Source: a virus. From it: a DNA stretch of 6,145 bases. Made by a program: the position numbers and the translations under genes. Position 1 is the first letter of the stretch, and each line of letters starts with the position of its first letter. Below are positions 1-6,145 of this stretch, in pieces. Under the pieces are notes generated by a model. That model did no database searches. It was given only the letters and a program-made list of their open reading frames with translations, and had not been told where the DNA came from. The stretch spans positions 1-6,145 of IMG/VR virus record IMGVR_UViG_3300011982_000017; one strand, 5' to 3'.

Positions 1-77
1 TACAAATATAGTTATTAACTTGTCTTTGCTTATAGATTTAATGTAAATCTTACGCTTTTTTAACTCTGCGCTGTGAA
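1..77. repeat. Terminal redundancy of a circular genome (left copy)
   Basis: Read directly: bases 1-77 (tacaaatatagttattaacttg...ctctgcgctgtgaa) are identical to 6069-6145. One exact direct repeat at the two ends of a roughly 6 kb microvirus-like contig is what a circular assembly produces. The unit length is 6068 nt. Confidence 0.95.
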
Positions 78-224
78 GCGTGGAGTTATTTATTTGGGTA
101 CAGGGTCTTAATAAGACCCGTAGCGGATAGCACCACAAAGCGAAGCGGTTAAGGCGCTGGGGCTTGCCCCCTGCTTGACGGAATAGCGAAGCGTATGGAG
201 GAAATAAAGCGCCCCTTATAAGTC
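61..224 (+). other. GC-rich multi-hairpin non-coding element (candidate complementary-strand origin or structured RNA)
   Basis: By hand count, 121-215 is roughly 55-60% GC while the flanks are visibly AT-rich. Hand-folded stem-loops: 61-88 (12 bp including two G-T/G-U wobbles, GTGA loop); 103-109/113-119 (GGGTCTT-AAT-AAGACCC, perfect 7 bp); 144-147/155-158 (AGCG-GTTAAGG-CGCT); 159-162/167-170 (GGGG-CTTG-CCCC). The 9-mer AGCGAAGCG occurs at 139-147 and 185-193, each containing GCGAAGC, and GAAGCG occurs a third time at 75-80. No ORF of meaningful length is present on either strand. Confidence 0.5.
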
Positions 225-301
225 AAAAAAATCTTTCTACAAACACAAATATAAAACGCAAACGCCCCCGCCGTTTGTCAAAGCTCTTGTTTCTTACAGG
301 A

Positions 302-325
302 AAAACTGACACCTCGTCAGTTTTC
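302..325 (+). terminator. Terminator-like hairpin (AAAACTGAC-acctc-GTCAGTTTT)
   Basis: A perfect 9-bp inverted repeat at 302-310/316-324 with a 5-nt loop. The core CTGAC/GTCAG stem is followed by TTTT and preceded by an A-run, which is the look of a bidirectional intrinsic terminator. It sits at the 3' edge of the GC-rich island, before the AT-rich stretch leading to the small ORF and rep. The stem is short and weak. Confidence 0.3.
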
Positions 326-429
326 AAAAAACCTATACTAAACACTACTAAAAATATATAAATCTTAAAAAACACTAATCATACTATTAATTATCTAACT
401 TTTTACCTGTAATTATTTATATTTGTGGC

Positions 430-606
430 ATGAACTTTGATATGTGGCAAAATTTCGATGAAATATGTAATTATACTCTTACTTGCGGTGATTGTAGTTG
501 GTGTGTGGTTAATTTTAGTGGCTCAGGACATTTTACCAGCTTTATATGTTCTAATCATCCTGAGCACCCTGAAGTAAAACTAACTGATAAGTGCTTTTTA
601 TTATGA
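430..606 (+). CDS. Small Cys/His-rich hypothetical protein (58 aa), putative zinc-binding, translationally coupled to Rep
   Basis: My own translation, since the ORF is not in the supplied track: MNFDMWQNFDEICNYTLTCGDCSWCVVNFSGSGHFTSFICSNHPEHPEVKLTDKCFLL*. It has 6 Cys and 3 His arranged C-x5-C-x2-C-x2-C ... C-x2-H-x2-H. The stop TGA (604-606) overlaps the ATG at 603-605 of the rep gene, a 4-nt ATGA overlap typical of coupled translation. It is on the same strand as every other gene and fills otherwise unexplained space. I cannot check homology. Confidence 0.45.
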   Translation: MNFDMWQNFDEICNYTLTCGDCSWCVVNFSGSGHFTSFICSNHPEHPEVKLTDKCFLL

Positions 607-2387
607 TAGACGAAATTAAATCTTATACTGCTAAAGAGTTTTTGCCTAACGATAACCTTTTCGGTTGTCTTCATCCCTCGTATATATATAATAAAAATAC
701 AGGACATTATGAAACAGTGCCCTGTAAAAAGTGTACATATTGCGTTAATGTTGAAGCGAGTAAACAATCTCGACGAGTTCGTGAAGAAATAAAACAACAT
801 TTGTACAGTGTTATGTTTACACTTACATACGATAATGAATATATACCACGAATGGAAGCATTTGCAGGCAAACATGGAGAAATGCAAATACGACCAATTG
901 GACGTACAAAAGAACTTCATAACTGTTGCCCTTTCAATTCTAAAGATTTTAACGGAGAATATCGTTTTAACGATGATACTCGTATTCCATGGATTGAAAA
1001 AAATAAAATAGTTTGGAAAAATAACATACAATTTGCAACAGTTAGCAAAAAAGACATACAGAATTTTCTCAAAAGATTGAGGAAAAAAATAGATAACTTA
1101 AATATTCCACAAAATGAAAAAAAAATTCGTTACTACATTGCAAGCGAATACGGACCTACGACACTCCGTCCGCATTACCACGGTATCCTATTCATCGATT
1201 CCGCCGAAGTCCTCTCTAAAATTAAAGATTTCATCGTTGACTCGTGGGGACTTTGGGTCAAGAAAAAAGGCACATTTAATAAGTATGAATTTAAACCGTT
1301 TGCGGATACTTTTCTTACCGCTGACAACATCAACATCTGTAACCCAAACACAGCATTCTATATTGCTGAATATGTTGCAGGCAATTTGGGTTTACCAGAG
1401 GTGTTACGAGAGCGTTGCACACGCCCGTTCCACTTACAAAGTAAAAACCCTGTTATTGGTGAATTCAAAAATAGCAAAGAAGAAGTTTTCGCACGCATCG
1501 ACCTCGGAATGCTTAGAAAGCCTGAAACATTTACTAAAAAAGATGGAACTCAAAAAACAGTTAATTTACTTATATCCAAAGATACATTATCTACCGTCTT
1601 CCGCAAATGTTACCGATATCGTGACTTATCTAATGATACAAAATATCACACTTATAACTTCTATTCTAAACACATCCGAGAATGGAAAGAGTACATTAAT
1701 GTTAAACTTATAGAATATGCTTTTACGAATAATATTAGATTTAATCGAGTTAATTTGTCTCGTTATCTTAGAGTACACCGTGAAGACACTTTCAGGAATT
1801 GGTGTATTAATTACAAAGCTGATGAGTATTTTCAACTTGAAATGGATAACGACACGAATTGGTATAGTAGTAAAAAGTGTTATGAATGCTCTAAAGATAT
1901 TGACCTTAGGAGATATAGTAACTTTTCTGATTTTACTTCTGTGTATCTTTTTATGTTCGATAGGTATCTTTATTTATACGAACAAGATAAGCTATCTACC
2001 TTTTATAATACATTTAATAACTTGATAGAGGAAATAGGCTATTATTCTGCCGAATTAGAGTGTTTTCCACTTCTCCGTCAAGCTATTCCACATATTAAAA
2101 AATTCACCGTTCACGGTTATAATTTAAACTTTGATAGAGAGAATAGAAAAGATATAAATTTACAACCATATATTAATTATATACAGCGAACTTCTTTTAA
2201 ATATTGGGTAACTCCTTACAACTTTCACGGCTATTTTGACGATGAAAAATTTGATAAAGAGTATAACCCCCGAAAAACATCTTTTTTCGAAAGGTACAAG
2301 AATGAACAAAAGAAAAAACTTAATATTCGTACGAAAACGAAGAAAGTAAACAACACAACAGTTAATGGAGTTCGAAAAATGGCTTAA
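603..2387 (+). CDS. VP4: Rolling-circle replication initiator protein (Microviridae VP4 / gene A-like, HUH endonuclease)
   Basis: The HUH superfamily motifs appear in the canonical order. Motif I is FTLTY (816-830). Motif II is HYHGILF (1173-1193). Motif III carries two tyrosines, YIAEY (1359-1373), with the same Y-x3-Y spacing as phiX174 A protein YVAKY. The N-terminal VPCKKCTYC cysteine cluster is typical of microvirus VP4. The track ORF opens at GTG 591. I prefer ATG 603 because it forms the ATGA overlap with the upstream small ORF. Stop is TAA at 2385-2387. Confidence 0.9.
   Translation: MIDEIKSYTAKEFLPNDNLFGCLHPSYIYNKNTGHYETVPCKKCTYCVNVEASKQSRRVREEIKQHLYSVMFTLTYDNEYIPRMEAFAGKHGEMQIRPIGRTKELHNCCPFNSKDFNGEYRFNDDTRIPWIEKNKIVWKNNIQFATVSKKDIQNFLKRLRKKIDNLNIPQNEKKIRYYIASEYGPTTLRPHYHGILFIDSAEVLSKIKDFIVDSWGLWVKKKGTFNKYEFKPFADTFLTADNINICNPNTAFYIAEYVAGNLGLPEVLRERCTRPFHLQSKNPVIGEFKNSKEEVFARIDLGMLRKPETFTKKDGTQKTVNLLISKDTLSTVFRKCYRYRDLSNDTKYHTYNFYSKHIREWKEYINVKLIEYAFTNNIRFNRVNLSRYLRVHREDTFRNWCINYKADEYFQLEMDNDTNWYSSKKCYECSKDIDLRRYSNFSDFTSVYLFMFDRYLYLYEQDKLSTFYNTFNNLIEEIGYYSAELECFPLLRQAIPHIKKFTVHGYNLNFDRENRKDINLQPYINYIQRTSFKYWVTPYNFHGYFDDEKFDKEYNPRKTSFFERYKNEQKKKLNIRTKTKKVNNTTVNGVRKMA
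1833..1851 (+). promoter_or_regulatory. Candidate viral-strand origin nick site (phiX174 ori-like), copy A, inside rep
   Basis: CAACTTGAAATGGATAACG. The first 18 nt match 15/18 positions of the phiX174 origin core CAACTTG^ATATTAATAAC, which I recall from the literature, including the full CAACTTGA around the nick. As in phiX174, the site lies inside the rep gene on the viral strand. Confidence 0.3.
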
Positions 2388-2433
2388 CCAATTATTAAAC
2401 AAATATGTATAACTATTTAATTTTAAATTAATT

Positions 2434-4140
2434 ATGTCAACTTCAAAAGTACCATTAATTAAACCAAGTAAGGCGACACGCCCAAGAAATGCGTTTGATA
2501 TTTCACAGCGTCACCTATTTACAGCGCCCGCAGGTGCTTTGCTCCCTGTGTTGTCGCTTGACCTCCTACCCCACGACCATGTGGAAATTAATGCAAGTGA
2601 TTTCATGCGCACTTTACCGATGAACAGTGCGGCGTTTATGAGTATGCGAGGAGTTTATGAATTTTACTTTGTGCCTTACAAACAGTTATGGAGCGGTTTT
2701 GACCAATTTATAACAGGTATGAGCGATTATAAGTCATCATTTATGTACGCATTTAAAGGCAAAACTCCTCCCTCTTGCGTGTCTTTCGATGTACAGAAGT
2801 TAGTTGATTTCTGTAAAACAAACACCGCCAAAGATATACACGGCTTTGACAAAAATAAAGGTGTTTATCGAATTCTTGACCTGTTAGGTTATGGAAAATA
2901 TGCAAATTCGGCAGGTGTTCCATACACTAATCCAATTTCTACTGCTATTGGCAAATGTACACCTTTTAGAGGTTTAGCATATCAAAAGATATATAACGAC
3001 TTCTACCGTAATACAACCTATGAAGAGTATCAACTTGAAAGTTTTAACGTTGATATGTTCTATGGCAGTGGAAAAGTTAAGGAAACAATTCCTAACGAAC
3101 CATGGGATTACGATTGGTTTACGCTAAGATATCGAAATGCTCAAAAAGACCTTTTGACTAACGTTCGCCCTACTCCGTTGTTTAGTTTGGACGATTTTAA
3201 CCCCCAATTTTTTACAGGTGGTAGTGATATAGTTATGGAAAAAGGACCAAATGTCACAGGTGGAACACACGAGTATAGAGATAGTGTCGTTATTGTTGGA
3301 AAGAACCTAAAAGAACAAGGTGTAGACAGTAAAAGAACTATGATATCAGTTGCAGATATCCGCAACGCCTTTGCTCTTGAGAAACTTGCATCTGTAACCA
3401 TGAGAGCAGGAAAAACCTACAAGGAGCAAATGGAAGCGCATTTCGGTATAAGTGTAGAAGAAGGACGTGACGGACGTTGTACATATATCGGTGGTTTTGA
3501 TTCTAATATACAAGTAGGTGATGTAACCCAATCAAGTGGTACTACTGTAACAGGTACAAAAGATACATCTTTTGGTGGTTATCTTGGAAGAACTACAGGA
3601 AAGGCGACAGGAAGCGGTAGCGGTCATATTCGCTTTGATGCAAAAGAACATGGTATTTTAATGTGTATTTATTCACTTGTTCCTGATGTTCAATATGACA
3701 GTAAGAGAGTAGACCCATTCGTACAAAAGATAGAGCGTGGCGATTTCTTTGTACCAGAGTTTGAGAACTTAGGTATGCAACCATTATTTGCTAAAAATAT
3801 TAGCTATAAGTATAATAATAATTTAGCTAATGCAAGAATAAAGAATTTAGGTGCTTTCGGTTGGCAACCCCGATATTCTGAATATAAGACAGCGTTAGAC
3901 ATCAATCATGGTCAATTTGTTCATAACGAACCGCTAAGTTATTGGACTGTTGCCCGAGCAAGAGGTGAAAGTATGTCTAACTTCAATATCTCGACATTCA
4001 AAATTAATCCTAAGTGGCTTGACGATGTTTTTGCCGTAAATTACAACGGTACAGAATTAACCGACCAAGTTTTTGGCGGTTGTTACTTTAACATCGTAAA
4101 AGTTTCAGATATGAGTATTGACGGAATGCCCAAAGTATAA
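2434..4140 (+). CDS. VP1: Major capsid protein (Microviridae VP1 / F-like)
   Basis: A 568-aa ORF and the second-longest ORF in the genome, after rep. The N-terminus RPRNAFDISQRHLFTAPAGALLPV...DHVEINASDFMRTLPMNSAAFMSMRGVYEFYFVPYKQLW has the characteristic microvirus capsid signature (R-N-x-F-D-x-S, then a beta-rich jelly-roll core). The C-terminal WQPRYSEYK and YWT segments are also typical. Stop is TAA at 4138-4140. Confidence 0.95.
   Translation: MSTSKVPLIKPSKATRPRNAFDISQRHLFTAPAGALLPVLSLDLLPHDHVEINASDFMRTLPMNSAAFMSMRGVYEFYFVPYKQLWSGFDQFITGMSDYKSSFMYAFKGKTPPSCVSFDVQKLVDFCKTNTAKDIHGFDKNKGVYRILDLLGYGKYANSAGVPYTNPISTAIGKCTPFRGLAYQKIYNDFYRNTTYEEYQLESFNVDMFYGSGKVKETIPNEPWDYDWFTLRYRNAQKDLLTNVRPTPLFSLDDFNPQFFTGGSDIVMEKGPNVTGGTHEYRDSVVIVGKNLKEQGVDSKRTMISVADIRNAFALEKLASVTMRAGKTYKEQMEAHFGISVEEGRDGRCTYIGGFDSNIQVGDVTQSSGTTVTGTKDTSFGGYLGRTTGKATGSGSGHIRFDAKEHGILMCIYSLVPDVQYDSKRVDPFVQKIERGDFFVPEFENLGMQPLFAKNISYKYNNNLANARIKNLGAFGWQPRYSEYKTALDINHGQFVHNEPLSYWTVARARGESMSNFNISTFKINPKWLDDVFAVNYNGTELTDQVFGGCYFNIVKVSDMSIDGMPKV
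3031..3049 (+). promoter_or_regulatory. Second copy of the ori-like motif, copy B, inside the capsid gene
   Basis: CAACTTGAAAGTTTTAACG. It matches copy A at 15/19 positions (CAACTTGAAA-N4-TAACG) and the phiX174 ori core at 14/18. Both copies are also preceded by GAGTAT, directly here and 2 nt further upstream in copy A. Confidence 0.2.
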
Positions 4141-4158
4141 AAAGAAAGGAATACAAAT

Positions 4159-4599
4159 ATGAGTAATTTAAATATCTTTTTCCCTTATATGTCAAGTGAG
4201 GACATAAAAGCAATGGAAGTCCAAACAGAACCAAACAGAGATTTGCCTGCGTTAAATAGAGAAATTGAGGAAGTAGTGGAAACTCTTTTCCCTATTGATC
4301 CACTTACAGGTAATCCAACATCAGCAGTTAGTAAACTTTTATCTCCTGCAGTTAGCGCACTTGAAAAAGAGAAGTATGCAAAGATGATGGAAGCAATACC
4401 AACAGATAATGGTAATAGAGGCGTTGATGATGAAACACTTATGGCAACTTTGCCCAGTCGTAGAAATATGACAATGACGGACAACGACAAATTTGCAAAT
4501 CACATCGCTAACTTTACTGATTACGTGGCAGAAAGTGGAAAAGAAGCAACCCCAACCGATACAGGAAGTCCTGAAACAGGTACAGGAACAGCTGAATAA
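4159..4599 (+). CDS. Small acidic protein, function unknown (possible internal scaffolding protein, VP3-like)
   Basis: A 146-aa ORF in the slot between capsid and pilot genes, on the same strand with tight 18-nt spacing after VP1. AAAGGA at 4145-4150, 8 nt upstream of the ATG, is the only clear SD-like site in the genome. The protein is D/E/T/P-rich with a low-complexity tail (TPTDTGSPETGTGTAE), consistent with a disordered scaffolding-type protein. That function is inferred from position and composition only. Confidence 0.7.
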   Translation: MSNLNIFFPYMSSEDIKAMEVQTEPNRDLPALNREIEEVVETLFPIDPLTGNPTSAVSKLLSPAVSALEKEKYAKMMEAIPTDNGNRGVDDETLMATLPSRRNMTMTDNDKFANHIANFTDYVAESGKEATPTDTGSPETGTGTAE

Positions 4600-4603
4600 T
4601 AAA

Positions 4604-4632
4604 AGTAGGGGGAATTTGCCCCCTACTCTTTC
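4604..4632 (+). terminator. Strong GC-rich stem-loop between the acidic ORF and VP2 (leaky terminator, attenuator or mRNA-stabilising hairpin)
   Basis: AGTAGGGGG (4604-4612) pairs perfectly with CCCCCTACT (4619-4627) around a 6-nt loop AATTTG. It starts 5 nt after the TAA of the 146-aa ORF. The trailing T-tract is short (CTTTC), so termination would be partial at best. That would resemble the inefficient intergenic hairpin terminators of phiX174. Confidence 0.35.
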
Positions 4633-4654
4633 ATAACTTTAAAGTTTTTGAATT

Positions 4655-5950
4655 ATGGAACAACAACAACAAAGTAACGGAGTAGGTGCAGCTCTTGCCG
4701 GTGGTTTGACTTCTGGCGCTTTTGGACTTATTGGCGGTGCAATAAATTCAATATTTGGCGCACGTTCACAGAGGAAAGAAAATGCAAGAAATAGAGCACA
4801 CCAAGAACTGATGTTAAAACGACAACAAGAGTACAACGATAAAGTTAATCAAGAAAATAGAGAATGGACAAATGAGGTAAACGTAAGAAATCGTATAGAA
4901 AGCGCAGGTTATAACCCTTATTTATACGACAACAACGCTCAAGCAAGCGCAGTAAATTCTAATAGTGCAGGCTCTGCCCCTGTTGAAAATATGCCGAGTG
5001 GTTTTGACCCAAGTTTTGGCAACGCTTTGCAAAATGCAGGCAATTTATTTGCCGATAGTATGAATAAAATTAAAACTTTTGAAAAAGATAATTATGACTT
5101 AGGACGTAAAAAAATTATTGATGATAAAAAAGACACACTTTCAGGTGGTGAAGGTGAAACAGAGGCACAGGAAGCAGTTGCCAACGCTAAATTAGCAGGC
5201 GCACACGCTCGTAAAGAATTAGCTTTAGCAGCTCAAGAAGAATTAAATACAACTTTTATGCAGTCACAGGCTTATGACGAGAACTCGCAACCGATGACAA
5301 ATCCGGACGGTTCTCCGATGACGTACAGCGACGCCAAAAACAAAGGTATAGTATCACAGCAATACAAAACTATTGAGAAGTTGTCGCAAGAGATTGCAAA
5401 TTTAGTAGAACAAGGTGACGGCATTAAATGGGATAATTTAACTAAAAAATATAATTTACAAGAATTGATGCCTGCAACTCTTGACCAAATTAGAGCATTA
5501 ACGGATAAATATAACACAGAAGTAAAAAAATTAAAGTCAGATATACAACTTAATGCAGAATTAGCAGTTACTGAATATTTTAAGCGAATGAATTTTCGAG
5601 CAGCTGCAAATATGAATTATTCATTATCAAACTTTTATAATATTTCTGCTTGGGATATAAAACAACAAAATCCGTATAAGATTAATGAATTAAAGTCAAG
5701 AAGTTTCTTTAATAATAGCCATGCAAATTATTTTAATGGTATGCTTCCATTCCAACAAGATTTGCTAAATGCACAAACAGGACATTATTTGAACCTTTCG
5801 GATAAGTTGAAGTTAGAAAATTATTTCAATGAGCAAACAATGGATAAAAGACTTTCACGTTTTGAATTAGATTATTATAAAAGTATTATGAGTGATGCAT
5901 ATAAAGGTGTTGGAAAATTAGGCGGTATGTTTATACCACGTTTTTGGTAA
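4655..5950 (+). CDS. VP2: Minor capsid / DNA pilot protein (Microviridae VP2 / H-like)
   Basis: A 431-aa ORF downstream of the capsid gene. The N-terminus has a Gly/Ala-rich hydrophobic segment (GVGAALAGGLTSGAFGLIGGAINSIFGA), a glycine-zipper-like membrane segment as in pilot proteins. This is followed by long charged Q/E/K/A-rich, probably coiled-coil, stretches (EAQEAVANAKLAGAHARKELALAAQEEL). Size, position and architecture fit VP2. Stop is TAA at 5948-5950. Confidence 0.8.
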   Translation: MEQQQQSNGVGAALAGGLTSGAFGLIGGAINSIFGARSQRKENARNRAHQELMLKRQQEYNDKVNQENREWTNEVNVRNRIESAGYNPYLYDNNAQASAVNSNSAGSAPVENMPSGFDPSFGNALQNAGNLFADSMNKIKTFEKDNYDLGRKKIIDDKKDTLSGGEGETEAQEAVANAKLAGAHARKELALAAQEELNTTFMQSQAYDENSQPMTNPDGSPMTYSDAKNKGIVSQQYKTIEKLSQEIANLVEQGDGIKWDNLTKKYNLQELMPATLDQIRALTDKYNTEVKKLKSDIQLNAELAVTEYFKRMNFRAAANMNYSLSNFYNISAWDIKQQNPYKINELKSRSFFNNSHANYFNGMLPFQQDLLNAQTGHYLNLSDKLKLENYFNEQTMDKRLSRFELDYYKSIMSDAYKGVGKLGGMFIPRFW

Positions 5951-6068
5951 TTAATTATACTGCTACTAATAGAAAAATGAACGCTATTAGTATAACTTTG
6001 ATGCAAAATATAATTATTATAACTCTTATAAAATCTTCCATATTATTATTATGTTTTAGTTATTGATA

Positions 6069-6145
6069 TACAAATATAGTTATTAACTTGTCTTTGCTTA
6101 TAGATTTAATGTAAATCTTACGCTTTTTTAACTCTGCGCTGTGAA
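6069..6145. repeat. Terminal redundancy of a circular genome (right copy)
   Basis: Exact copy of bases 1-77. See the left copy. Confidence 0.95.

Follow-up and report, generated by a model that had tools for sequence, protein, structure and literature searches.

What is the function of the GC-rich, hairpin-dense island in the non-coding region of the microvirus record IMGVR_UViG_3300011982_000017, and does it act as DNA or as RNA? The window, namely the whole 6,145-nt stretch that was analyzed (positions 1 to 6,145 of the record), represents a microvirus genome that forms a circle of 6,068 nt, its two ends being repeated (1-77 = 6069-6145). The island was found to be a real, conserved and strand-specific set of hairpins of Bacteroidales microviruses. 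The part at 61-222, together with conserved flanks from 1 to about 330, may be a portable cis module that is recognized by the host as a single-strand origin and acts as folded DNA on the packaged or displaced strand; this reading is favored tentatively, at somewhat less than even confidence.

The original prediction, made from the letters of the window, described about 550 nt without a plausible open reading frame (ORF) and a GC-rich island in an AT-rich genome. The stretch measured 547 nt (5951-6068 plus 1-429) and held two short ORFs without family matches; the annotations of relatives leave its equivalent empty. The GC content was 57% at 101-200 against about 35% genome-wide. When 55-330 was compared with dinucleotide shuffles, 1 of 200 was equally stable with DNA parameters (z = -2.98) and 6 of 200 with RNA parameters (z = -2.05). 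The repeated 9-mer AGCGAAGCG occurred exactly at 139-147 and 185-193 only, two copies being present in 0/200 shuffles, and the third GAAGCG was located at 75-80, inside the first hairpin. Units of the form GCG-N(1-3)-AGC lie at 123-131, 140-146 and 186-192, and the genome has one other; three such units within 70 nt were seen in 0/500 shuffles.

Homologues were retrieved by pattern scans and by protein-guided searches. The first group (G1) comprises 18 distinct close versions, all from microviruses of about 6 kb. The second group (G2), found with a looser pattern, comprises gut microviruses (human and animal) that have genomes of about 6 kb and the gene order capsid-pilot-Rep; their Rep (332 amino acids) is very different from the G1 Rep (594 amino acids). 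A G2-specific covariance model detected the element in 33 of the 80 related genomes, with scores of 53-162 bits. A third, diverged version was found at the same genomic position in prophages of Hallella bergensis, whose capsid protein is only 52% identical. Reciprocal searches with the G1 and G2 models gave weak matches (12-22 bits), each of which nevertheless fell on the expected site and strand. Given these matches, the common 13-mer TAGCG(T/A)CTAGCAC, the common order of parts (hairpin, AYAG junction, hairpin, 13-mer, GAA-type mini-hairpin, GC-rich hairpin) and the common 10-mer TACAAATATA, the G1 and G2 modules are treated here as homologous. Across the homologues, the island is much more strongly conserved than the proteins. 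The parts of the module in the window are as follows:

1-10, + strand: the 10-mer TACAAATATA, about 60 nt upstream of H1; it is the complement of TATATTTG, the Bacteroidota -7 promoter box.
61-95, + strand: hairpin H1; 61-88 form 12 bp with a GTGA loop and the wobbles T67.G82 and G68.T81, and a T-rich run follows.
96-102, + strand: junction GGGTACA (consensus GGGYAYAG), which leads into H2; G96-G98 are invariant in G1.
103-119, + strand: hairpin H2, GGGTCTT-AAT-AAGACCC.
121-133, + strand: hallmark motif TAGCGGATAGCAC (TAGCGTCTAGCAC in most relatives), common to G1 and G2; 123-131 form the mini-hairpin GC-[GGATA]-GC.
140-146, + strand: mini-hairpin 1, GCGAAGC, with two G-C pairs and a sheared G.A pair.
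153-158, + strand: 5' arm GGCGCT of the long-range helix H3, pairing with 208-213.
159-170, + strand: hairpin H4, GGGG-CTTG-CCCC, enclosed by H3.
171-207, + strand: G1-specific branch, which holds mini-hairpin 2 (186-192, GCGAAGC).
208-222, + strand: 3' arm AGCGCC of H3 and the conserved tail CCTTATAAG; GCGCCCCTTA is invariant in G1.
259-277, + strand: hairpin CAAACG-CCCCCGC-CGTTTG with the conserved loop CCYCCGN.
302-324, + strand: hairpin AAAACTGAC-ACCTC-GTCAGTTTT with the conserved 5' half AAAAnTGACACCTCG.

The 32-pair structure was scored on the G1 alignment and compared with the same structure after its partners had been slid. In G1, 94.8% of the cells were paired against at most 52.8% in the slid controls, and 11 pairs were changed on both sides; RNAalifold independently recovered H1, H2 and H3/H4. 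In G2, 96.7% of the cells were paired and 17 of the 22 pairs covaried. The stems are thus backed by compensatory substitutions in relatives, as the original prediction had proposed to check, and the hairpins that it drew at 61-88, 103-119, 159-170, 259-277 and 302-324 are all present with such changes. Its hairpin at 144-158 (AGCG/CGCT) is not supported, since it clashes with the helix 153-158/208-213 (H3). This helix has five invariant pairs, and its sixth is T158-A208 in nine and A-T in the other nine of the 18 distinct G1 sequences, without exception. In alignment A2, all 11 pairs of H1 were 100% paired, four of them were changed on both sides, and the T67.G82 wobble was invariant. The H2 stem is wholly replaced in relatives (GGGGGCAT/ATGCCTCCC and GGGGGTAT/ATCCCCC), and all six of its pairs covary in G2. 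The H4 stems of G1 read GGGG/CCCC, ACCG/CGGT, ACGG/CCGT and AGGG/CCCT, with three of the four pairs changed on both sides; the G2 counterpart is a longer helix in which 6/8 pairs covary.

Other parts are shared to different degrees. The 10-mer TACAAATATA is almost invariant in G1; in G2 it lies about 85 nt upstream of the element with its relative orientation unchanged, where the gene sense reads TTTG-N19-TATATTTG. The 96-102 junction has the counterpart GNGCAAYAG in G2. In place of H3, G2 carries a local hairpin, CGNC-(GAA/AAA/GGA/AGA)-GNCG; the G2 helix GGCG/CGCC was rejected as an H3 homologue because 19 of 36 sequences are unpaired at one position. The 171-207 branch appears dispensable, as the loop of mini-hairpin 2 varies in G1 (GAA, GTTA, GAAT, AAG, ACG, AAT), the unit is deleted in two genomes (L034 and L161), and the whole branch is missing from G2. 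Two further candidates were discarded: a tertiary pairing of 121-133 with 171-207 showed no covariation (L120, for example, joins GA with TA), and a GNRA-receptor reading of TATGG was not conserved.

The two flanking hairpins are conserved as well. At 259-277, 84% of the cells were paired against at most 55% in the slid controls, five pairs were changed on both sides, and the stems elsewhere read GAAAAAA/TTTTTTC and GCGAAAC/GTTTCGC. The loop varies little (CCCCCGC, CCTCCGC, CCTCCGA, CCCCCGT) on fully different stems, and in Hallella (L293, 11762-11787) the arms are exchanged; this pattern suggests that the loop may be read by a protein or by another nucleic acid. It includes an anti-Shine-Dalgarno-like CCUCC. 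At 302-324, a C-G pair is replaced by A-T in a compensatory manner, the compensatory arms AAAAAATGA/TCATTTTTT are present in L005, and loop lengths run from 5 to 20 nt.

The GCGAAGC units had been proposed to act as mini-hairpins, and their variation bears this out: homologues differ at loop positions only (GAA, GTA, GTTA, GTCA, GATA), apart from one compensatory AC..GT stem. Among the 18 distinct G1 sequences, mini-hairpin 1 reads GCGAAGC (9), GCGTTAGC (4), GCGTCAGC (3), GCGTAGC (1) or ACGAAGT (1), and further variants are GCGATAGC in L015, GCGAAAAGC in the Hoylesella prophage described below and GCGGAGC in Hallella. The Hirao mini-hairpin rule (GCGNAGC or GCGNNAGC, i.e., two G-C pairs and a sheared G.A pair with any N) is obeyed at 140-146 in every homologue. 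The unit at 123-131 reads GCGGATAGC, with a 5-nt loop of the form G-NN-T-A, whereas the published stabilities cover GNA and GNNA loops. Its variants are GC-GTCTA-GC, GC-GACTA-GC and GC-GTTTA-GC, as well as GC-GTTA-GC in four G2 genomes, and a double change to AC-GTCTA-GT is present in two genomes. Two independent double changes from GC..GC to AC..GT were thus found among the mini-hairpin units; otherwise the loop positions alone vary.

The published properties of such hairpins are those of DNA. The DNA d(GCGNAGC) melts at 70-76 °C whatever the N, and GNNA loops such as GTTA are tolerated; of GCNNNGC fragments, only those with GNA loops form the mini-hairpin (PMC13037366, Kimoto and Hirao). The RNA form r(GCGAAAGC) melts at 39 °C, and mini-hairpin DNAs are poorly bound by single-stranded DNA-binding protein (SSB) (PMC13037366). 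The original prediction had noted that the class occurs in origin regions of phages with single-stranded DNA (ssDNA), and this is documented: GCG(N)nAGC is present at the primer site in the G4, St-1 and alpha3 origins of the complementary strand, with GCGAAAGC (G4) and GCGTTAGC (St-1, alpha3) at the primase start site (PMC13037366). The conserved 2-bp hairpins of the module are therefore easier to explain as DNA than as RNA structures.

The strand that folds was deduced from the wobble pairs. In well-aligned helices, the pair cells of G1 were 470 Watson-Crick, 34 G.T and 0 A.C, and those of G2 were 622 Watson-Crick, 11 G.T and 1 A.C. Because the wobbles are almost all G.T and not A.C, the TAGCG-sense strand appears to be the folded strand in both groups. 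In G1, this strand also folds more stably than its complement in 18/18 sequences, and the module lies in the gene sense in all G1 and Hallella genomes.

These data can be combined in a mechanism, for which we infer DNA as the active form, priming as the function and the identity of the enzyme. The packaged strand, which is also displaced in rolling-circle replication, would be coated by host SSB, and the GC-rich core would stay folded: H2 (103-119), H4 (159-170), H3 (153-158/208-213) and, in tandem, the GC-[G..A]-GC mini-hairpins of 123-131 and 140-146, which should be very stable as DNA and poor binders of SSB. The core would then offer a host enzyme a fixed start site for the complementary strand. 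This enzyme would most likely be DnaG primase, as in G4, with RNA polymerase or the PriA primosome as alternatives, and H1 (61-88) with its T run probably doubles as the terminator of late transcripts. Recognition by a host factor, not by Rep, is suggested because the core is kept at about 80-90% identity across genomes whose Reps share only 56-63% identity, because the hallmark motif is shared with G2 and its quite different Rep, and because both lineages use Bacteroidota hosts or promoters.

Several results weigh against a single-strand origin. In 33/33 G2 genomes, the module runs antisense to all of the genes, at a distance of 100-300 nt downstream from the stop codon of Rep. To our knowledge, all microviruses studied so far are taken to package the coding-sense strand. 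Features on the complementary strand are essentially unknown (Roux 2012). If G2 phages package the coding-sense strand, the module is therefore absent from their virion DNA, and a single-strand origin is excluded there. Folding energy favors the element-sense strand in just 15/36 G2 sequences with DNA parameters and 4/36 with RNA parameters; the polarity call is thus weaker in G2, where it depends on the counts of wobble pairs and on how the non-palindromic motif is oriented. As RNA, too, the loops GTGA (GNRA) and GCTTGC (CUUG-type) are classic tetraloops. Covariance model R1 found nothing on the + strand at the G4 origin (3900-4000), and a search for the RSB box of the plasmid origin ssoA (TTATGCCGAGAAAATTT) gave 0 matches at up to three mismatches. 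A CTG within 25 nt 3' of mini-hairpin 1 was present in only 5/18 homologues, although CTG may not be the triplet of the Bacteroidota primase. Of the complementary-strand origin originally proposed, a structured + strand element has held and the origin is still its best reading, whereas homology to the G4 origin is absent and the antisense placement in G2 fits an ssDNA signal only if those phages package the non-coding strand.

A further caveat concerns neutral composition, which was measured on the coding strand at 4-fold degenerate third codon positions:

G1 and Hallella: T 0.43-0.69, A 0.16-0.39.
G4: T 0.46, A 0.17.
Chp2: T 0.50, A 0.25.
SpV4: T 0.65, A 0.28.
G2 genomes with the element: T 0.09-0.20, A 0.57-0.71.
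All 80 G2-related genomes (L297-L376): T 0.04-0.29, A 0.48-0.87.
phiMH2K (isolated phage, L379), intermediate: A 0.45, T 0.24, G 0.07.

The A/T skew is mirrored in all 80 G2-related genomes, with or without the element, and phiMH2K is also A-rich on the coding strand. The element-sense strand is T-rich at 4-fold sites in 10/10 G1 and Hallella genomes and in 33/33 G2 genomes. The packaged strand of ssDNA phages has a C-to-T bias, and the T-rich element strand fits, but does not prove, a module that marks the packaged strand, with G2 packaging the non-coding strand. From the inverted module of G2 and its mirror-image neutral-site composition, it is possible, though doubtful, that a host-specific origin cassette defines the displaced and packaged strand, that a large gut and environmental clade of the G2 type accordingly packages the complement of its mRNA (negative sense), and that the cassette moved between unrelated lineages sharing Bacteroidales hosts. 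In the literature, nothing relevant was found on the skew or polarity of gokushoviruses or on the virion polarity of phiMH2K.

As to the transcription context, a terminator scan listed 61-88 plus TTTATTTGGG, and a T run follows H1 in all G1 subgroups; the Hallella version of H1 is a canonical terminator, and the first hairpin of G2 is without a T run. On the + strand, TAnnTTTG (the Bacteroidota -7 box) occurs twice in the genome, at 418-425 and 5993-6000, and was not found within 61-325. Two features downstream of the island are relevant here:

376-400, + strand: dif-like attachment site (attP), which flanks the module and lies outside the folded island.
418-425, + strand: TATATTTG, the -7 promoter box that immediately precedes the small ORF and rep, at the downstream end of the seemingly silent gap.

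The core begins directly after a terminator-like hairpin (61-95) and about 200 nt ahead of the next -7 box, so that the gap between them looks transcriptionally silent and the core is probably not transcribed as a unit. The -7 box before the ATG is conserved in the Hallella prophages. Three copies of TATATTTG are present, at 3-10 (-), 246-253 (-) and 418-425 (+), two of them on the geneless strand; the copy at 246-253, which can pair with 416-427, is not kept in all G1 subgroups. Inverted repeats surround the dif-like site, one a perfect 12-nt repeat (244-255/416-427) and the other matching at 11/12 nt (294-305/401-412), so that attP might be enclosed in a fold of the ssDNA, or a double-stranded mimic of a promoter might arise, by analogy with CTXphi or M13.

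The attachment site was recognized from the prophage junctions of Hoylesella nanceiensis, which share ATCATA(A/C)TATTAATTATAT (L292, about 5945-5965 and 12095-12113), a motif that resembles dif (CATAA, 6 nt, TTAT...). Integration by dif/Xer has been proposed for Bacteroidales microvirus proviruses (PMC3091885). The motif at 376-394 had been considered as a plus origin, which was rejected since the prophage junctions show a dif-like attP. Likewise, TTAACTTG (15-22) and the G2 box TAACTTTG were considered as a phiX174 nick site or a -7 box, and the resemblance was not conserved.

A structured RNA, i.e., a stand-alone non-coding RNA gene or a cis-acting element of an untranslated region, appears unlikely. 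In its favor, mainly, the folded strand is the same in G1 and G2 while the orientation to the genes flips, a behavior to be expected of an independent RNA gene; the loops include GNRA and CUUG-type tetraloops, G.U wobbles are frequent with T67.G82 invariant, and some G2 genomes have a TAACTTTG box ahead of the element. This box, however, occurs in only about 7/34 G2 genomes, its spacing from any TTTG is poor, and in G2 neither a conserved promoter box upstream in the element sense nor a terminator after the element was found. The core of G1 and Hallella, moreover, starts just past its terminator-like hairpin, and three conserved 2-bp hairpins are stable as DNA but weak as RNA (76 °C vs. 39 °C). 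Against Rfam 15 (4,227 families), the best match of window 1-700 had E = 3.4-5.6, far below the gathering scores, so that the island is without a match; three G2 genomes gave 0 matches at E <= 1, and a tRNA/tmRNA search found none. The specific version of this reading in the original prediction, namely a leader of riboswitch type that controls the small ORF and rep, is also unlikely: the terminator-like hairpin stands directly before the core, two more hairpins and the dif-like site separate the core from the ORF, and integration at attP would sever the element from rep by placing the whole prophage between them. A plain cluster of terminators or mRNA-stabilizing hairpins at the end of the late operon, blocking transcription around the circle, is quite improbable. 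Hairpin 61-88 with its T run and 302-324 with TTTTCA score as or resemble terminators. The intergenic hairpins of phiX174 have terminator and mRNA-stabilizing roles. Multiple functions of intergenic hairpins have been noted (PMC9865509). A terminator, however, needs no invariant 13-mer, 2-bp mini-hairpins or long-range helix; the first G2 hairpin has no T run, and the G2 module is inverted relative to the genes with its folded strand unchanged.

Two other readings keep the element as DNA and give it another task. It is rather improbable that the module is a plus-strand (double-strand) origin, at which Rep binds and nicks an extruded hairpin or ssDNA, e.g., in TAGCGTCTAGCAC, and terminates, or that it is a packaging signal. 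Reps of the HUH type often work on a motif within a hairpin or next to one, and nick sequences can persist across very divergent Reps, such as CTTGATA, which phiX174 shares with the pC194 family. No other non-coding sequence is as conserved as the module, these phages have no known plus origin, and such an origin also predicts that orientation sets the packaged strand, which fits the skew data. However, a 160-nt multi-helix element far exceeds the known plus origins of microviruses (about 30 nt in phiX174), the hallmark 13-mer appears paired as a mini-hairpin and not open, and the Reps of G1 and G2 (594 and 332 amino acids) are very different proteins. Very improbable is an accessory fold that would help Xer to integrate the genome in its single-stranded form, as in CTXphi. 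The phage does use a dif-like site for integration, and the inverted repeats described above bracket the crossover; yet the crossover site (about 378-398) is some 160 nt outside the island, whose helices exclude the dif-like sequence. No G2 prophage was found, and a dif-like site beside the G2 element was not searched for. A single-strand origin is retained as the preferred reading.

The + strand of the window genome carries every gene:

430-606, + strand: small ORF with a Cys-rich product of 58 amino acids.
603-2387, + strand: Rep (Pfam REP_ORF2-G2P), 594 amino acids.
2434-4140, + strand: capsid protein (Pfam Phage_F).
4159-4599, + strand: ORF.
4655-5950, + strand: pilot-like protein.

The records closest to the window are human oral and nasopharyngeal microviruses. 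An integrated prophage in Hoylesella (Prevotella) nanceiensis DSM 19126 is 87% identical to the window in nucleotide sequence, and its capsid protein is 98% identical; on this basis the host is assigned to the Prevotellaceae and the phage is considered temperate. The Cys-rich protein of the small ORF is kept in G1 at 72-93% identity, and family searches with it gave no match; the Hallella prophages carry instead DNA coding for a Cys-rich peptide upstream of the terminator and the element (L293, about 11400-11575).

Several side observations were made on the homologues. L006 is a mosaic relative to the window, L002 and L003 in alignment A2: its H1 is near the window type with one compensated G-C to A-T change, its H2 and mini-hairpin 2 are of the L003 type, and its H4 is of the L002 type, which suggests recombination inside the element among co-circulating phages. 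In the 0-130 nt 3' of the G2 element (element sense; e.g., L316 and L304), CCTTAAGG palindromes were observed, together with CACCTC...GAGGTG around GGCC-ACCC-GGCC beside a conserved CCCTCCCGTTATACACC; judging from these, the G2 module is longer than the 126 nt modeled. Long metagenome contigs bearing the element were rejected as prophages, being tandem chimeras of different microviruses (QWCF01000091 and others). In QWCF01000091.1 (39.6 kb; L098 and L120), Reps 90% and 56% identical to that of the window lie side by side, and L144, L105, L161 and L193 are also on long tandem contigs that join different genomes or one genome twice. Such contigs are probably assembly chimeras, joined perhaps through the shared non-coding module.

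Other matches were set aside. About 45 contigs, each roughly 50 kb long, matched the pattern AGCG-N1-2-AGCGGTWAAGGCGC by chance, in one unrelated tailed-phage coding sequence; a 19-nt string, AGCGGAAGCGGTAAAGGCGC, lies in a coding region of this one tailed-phage family (L007-L064), with flanks unlike the element, and is a chance match. Matches to the looser pattern were mostly chance in metagenome contigs and all chance in genome contigs, and were filtered with covariance model R1, by which L156, L104 and L068 were classed as false positives. The element was absent from distant prophages, namely those of Prevotella sp. AGR2160, a Prevotellaceae metagenome-assembled genome (MAG), a Paludibacteraceae MAG and a contig binned as Faecalimonas.

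The initiation of the complementary strand is the first step of every microvirus infection, and no phages other than those of E. coli (phiX174 and the G4 group) have had it defined. The abundant human-associated microviruses that infect Prevotella and Bacteroides have no known cis-acting signal for replication, and the module is a concrete candidate. Its defined secondary structure, invariant positions and natural deletion variants can guide mutagenesis, and it could reveal how the priming enzymes of Bacteroidota recognize ssDNA. The module keeps its own polarity, and its orientation to the genes differs by lineage, which makes the assumption that all Microviridae are positive-sense testable. 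The covariance models could also be used to annotate these microvirus genomes.

Compared with known systems, the module would be an analogue of the G4, phiX174 and plasmid single-strand origin (sso) signals and not their homologue, since both the RSB box and homology to the G4 origin are lacking. Like the origins of G4, St-1, alpha3 and phiK (Bullavirinae), it is an intergenic multi-hairpin signal on the viral strand with the presumed logic of a structure that resists SSB; the G4 origin carries GCGAAAGC, and GCGTTAGC of St-1 and alpha3 is found verbatim in several module homologues. Those origins consist of three simple hairpins, whereas the module has a long-range helix and tandem mini-hairpins and belongs to another host phylum. 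Like ssoA, it would be a folded DNA of about 150-200 nt that is specific to strand and orientation and highly conserved among otherwise unrelated replicons sharing hosts; this likeness to the origins of rolling-circle plasmids is one of function and extends to a cassette-like, host-specific character. The ssoA hexamer CS-6 (TAGCGT) is present in the hallmark motif of 16/18 G1 sequences, as TAGCGT or TAGCGA in most G2 genomes and as TAGCGG in the window; in the module, however, it forms part of the stem and loop of a mini-hairpin, whereas in ssoA, which belongs to Gram-positive plasmids and is primed by RNA polymerase, it is a terminal-loop signal. The minus origin of the Ff phages (M13/f1) likewise lies in an intergenic region with several signals, where the packaged strand of an ssDNA phage forms hairpins beside other cis elements. 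It mimics a promoter for RNA polymerase; in contrast, no Bacteroidota -33 or -7 box was seen on the island's own strand, although the complement of a -7 box at 246-253 could pair with 416-427. In the literature, no description of the element was found, in agreement with the original prediction that none had been defined for this group, although intergenic hairpins had already been raised as minus-strand origins in other microvirus clades: reekeekeeviruses and roodoodooviruses have conserved hairpins with compensatory changes upstream of Rep, which were tentatively proposed for that role (PMC9865509). Those are one or two simple hairpins of 13-64 nt with unrelated sequence, whereas the present element is a 160-nt multi-helix module found in two very different microvirus lineages.

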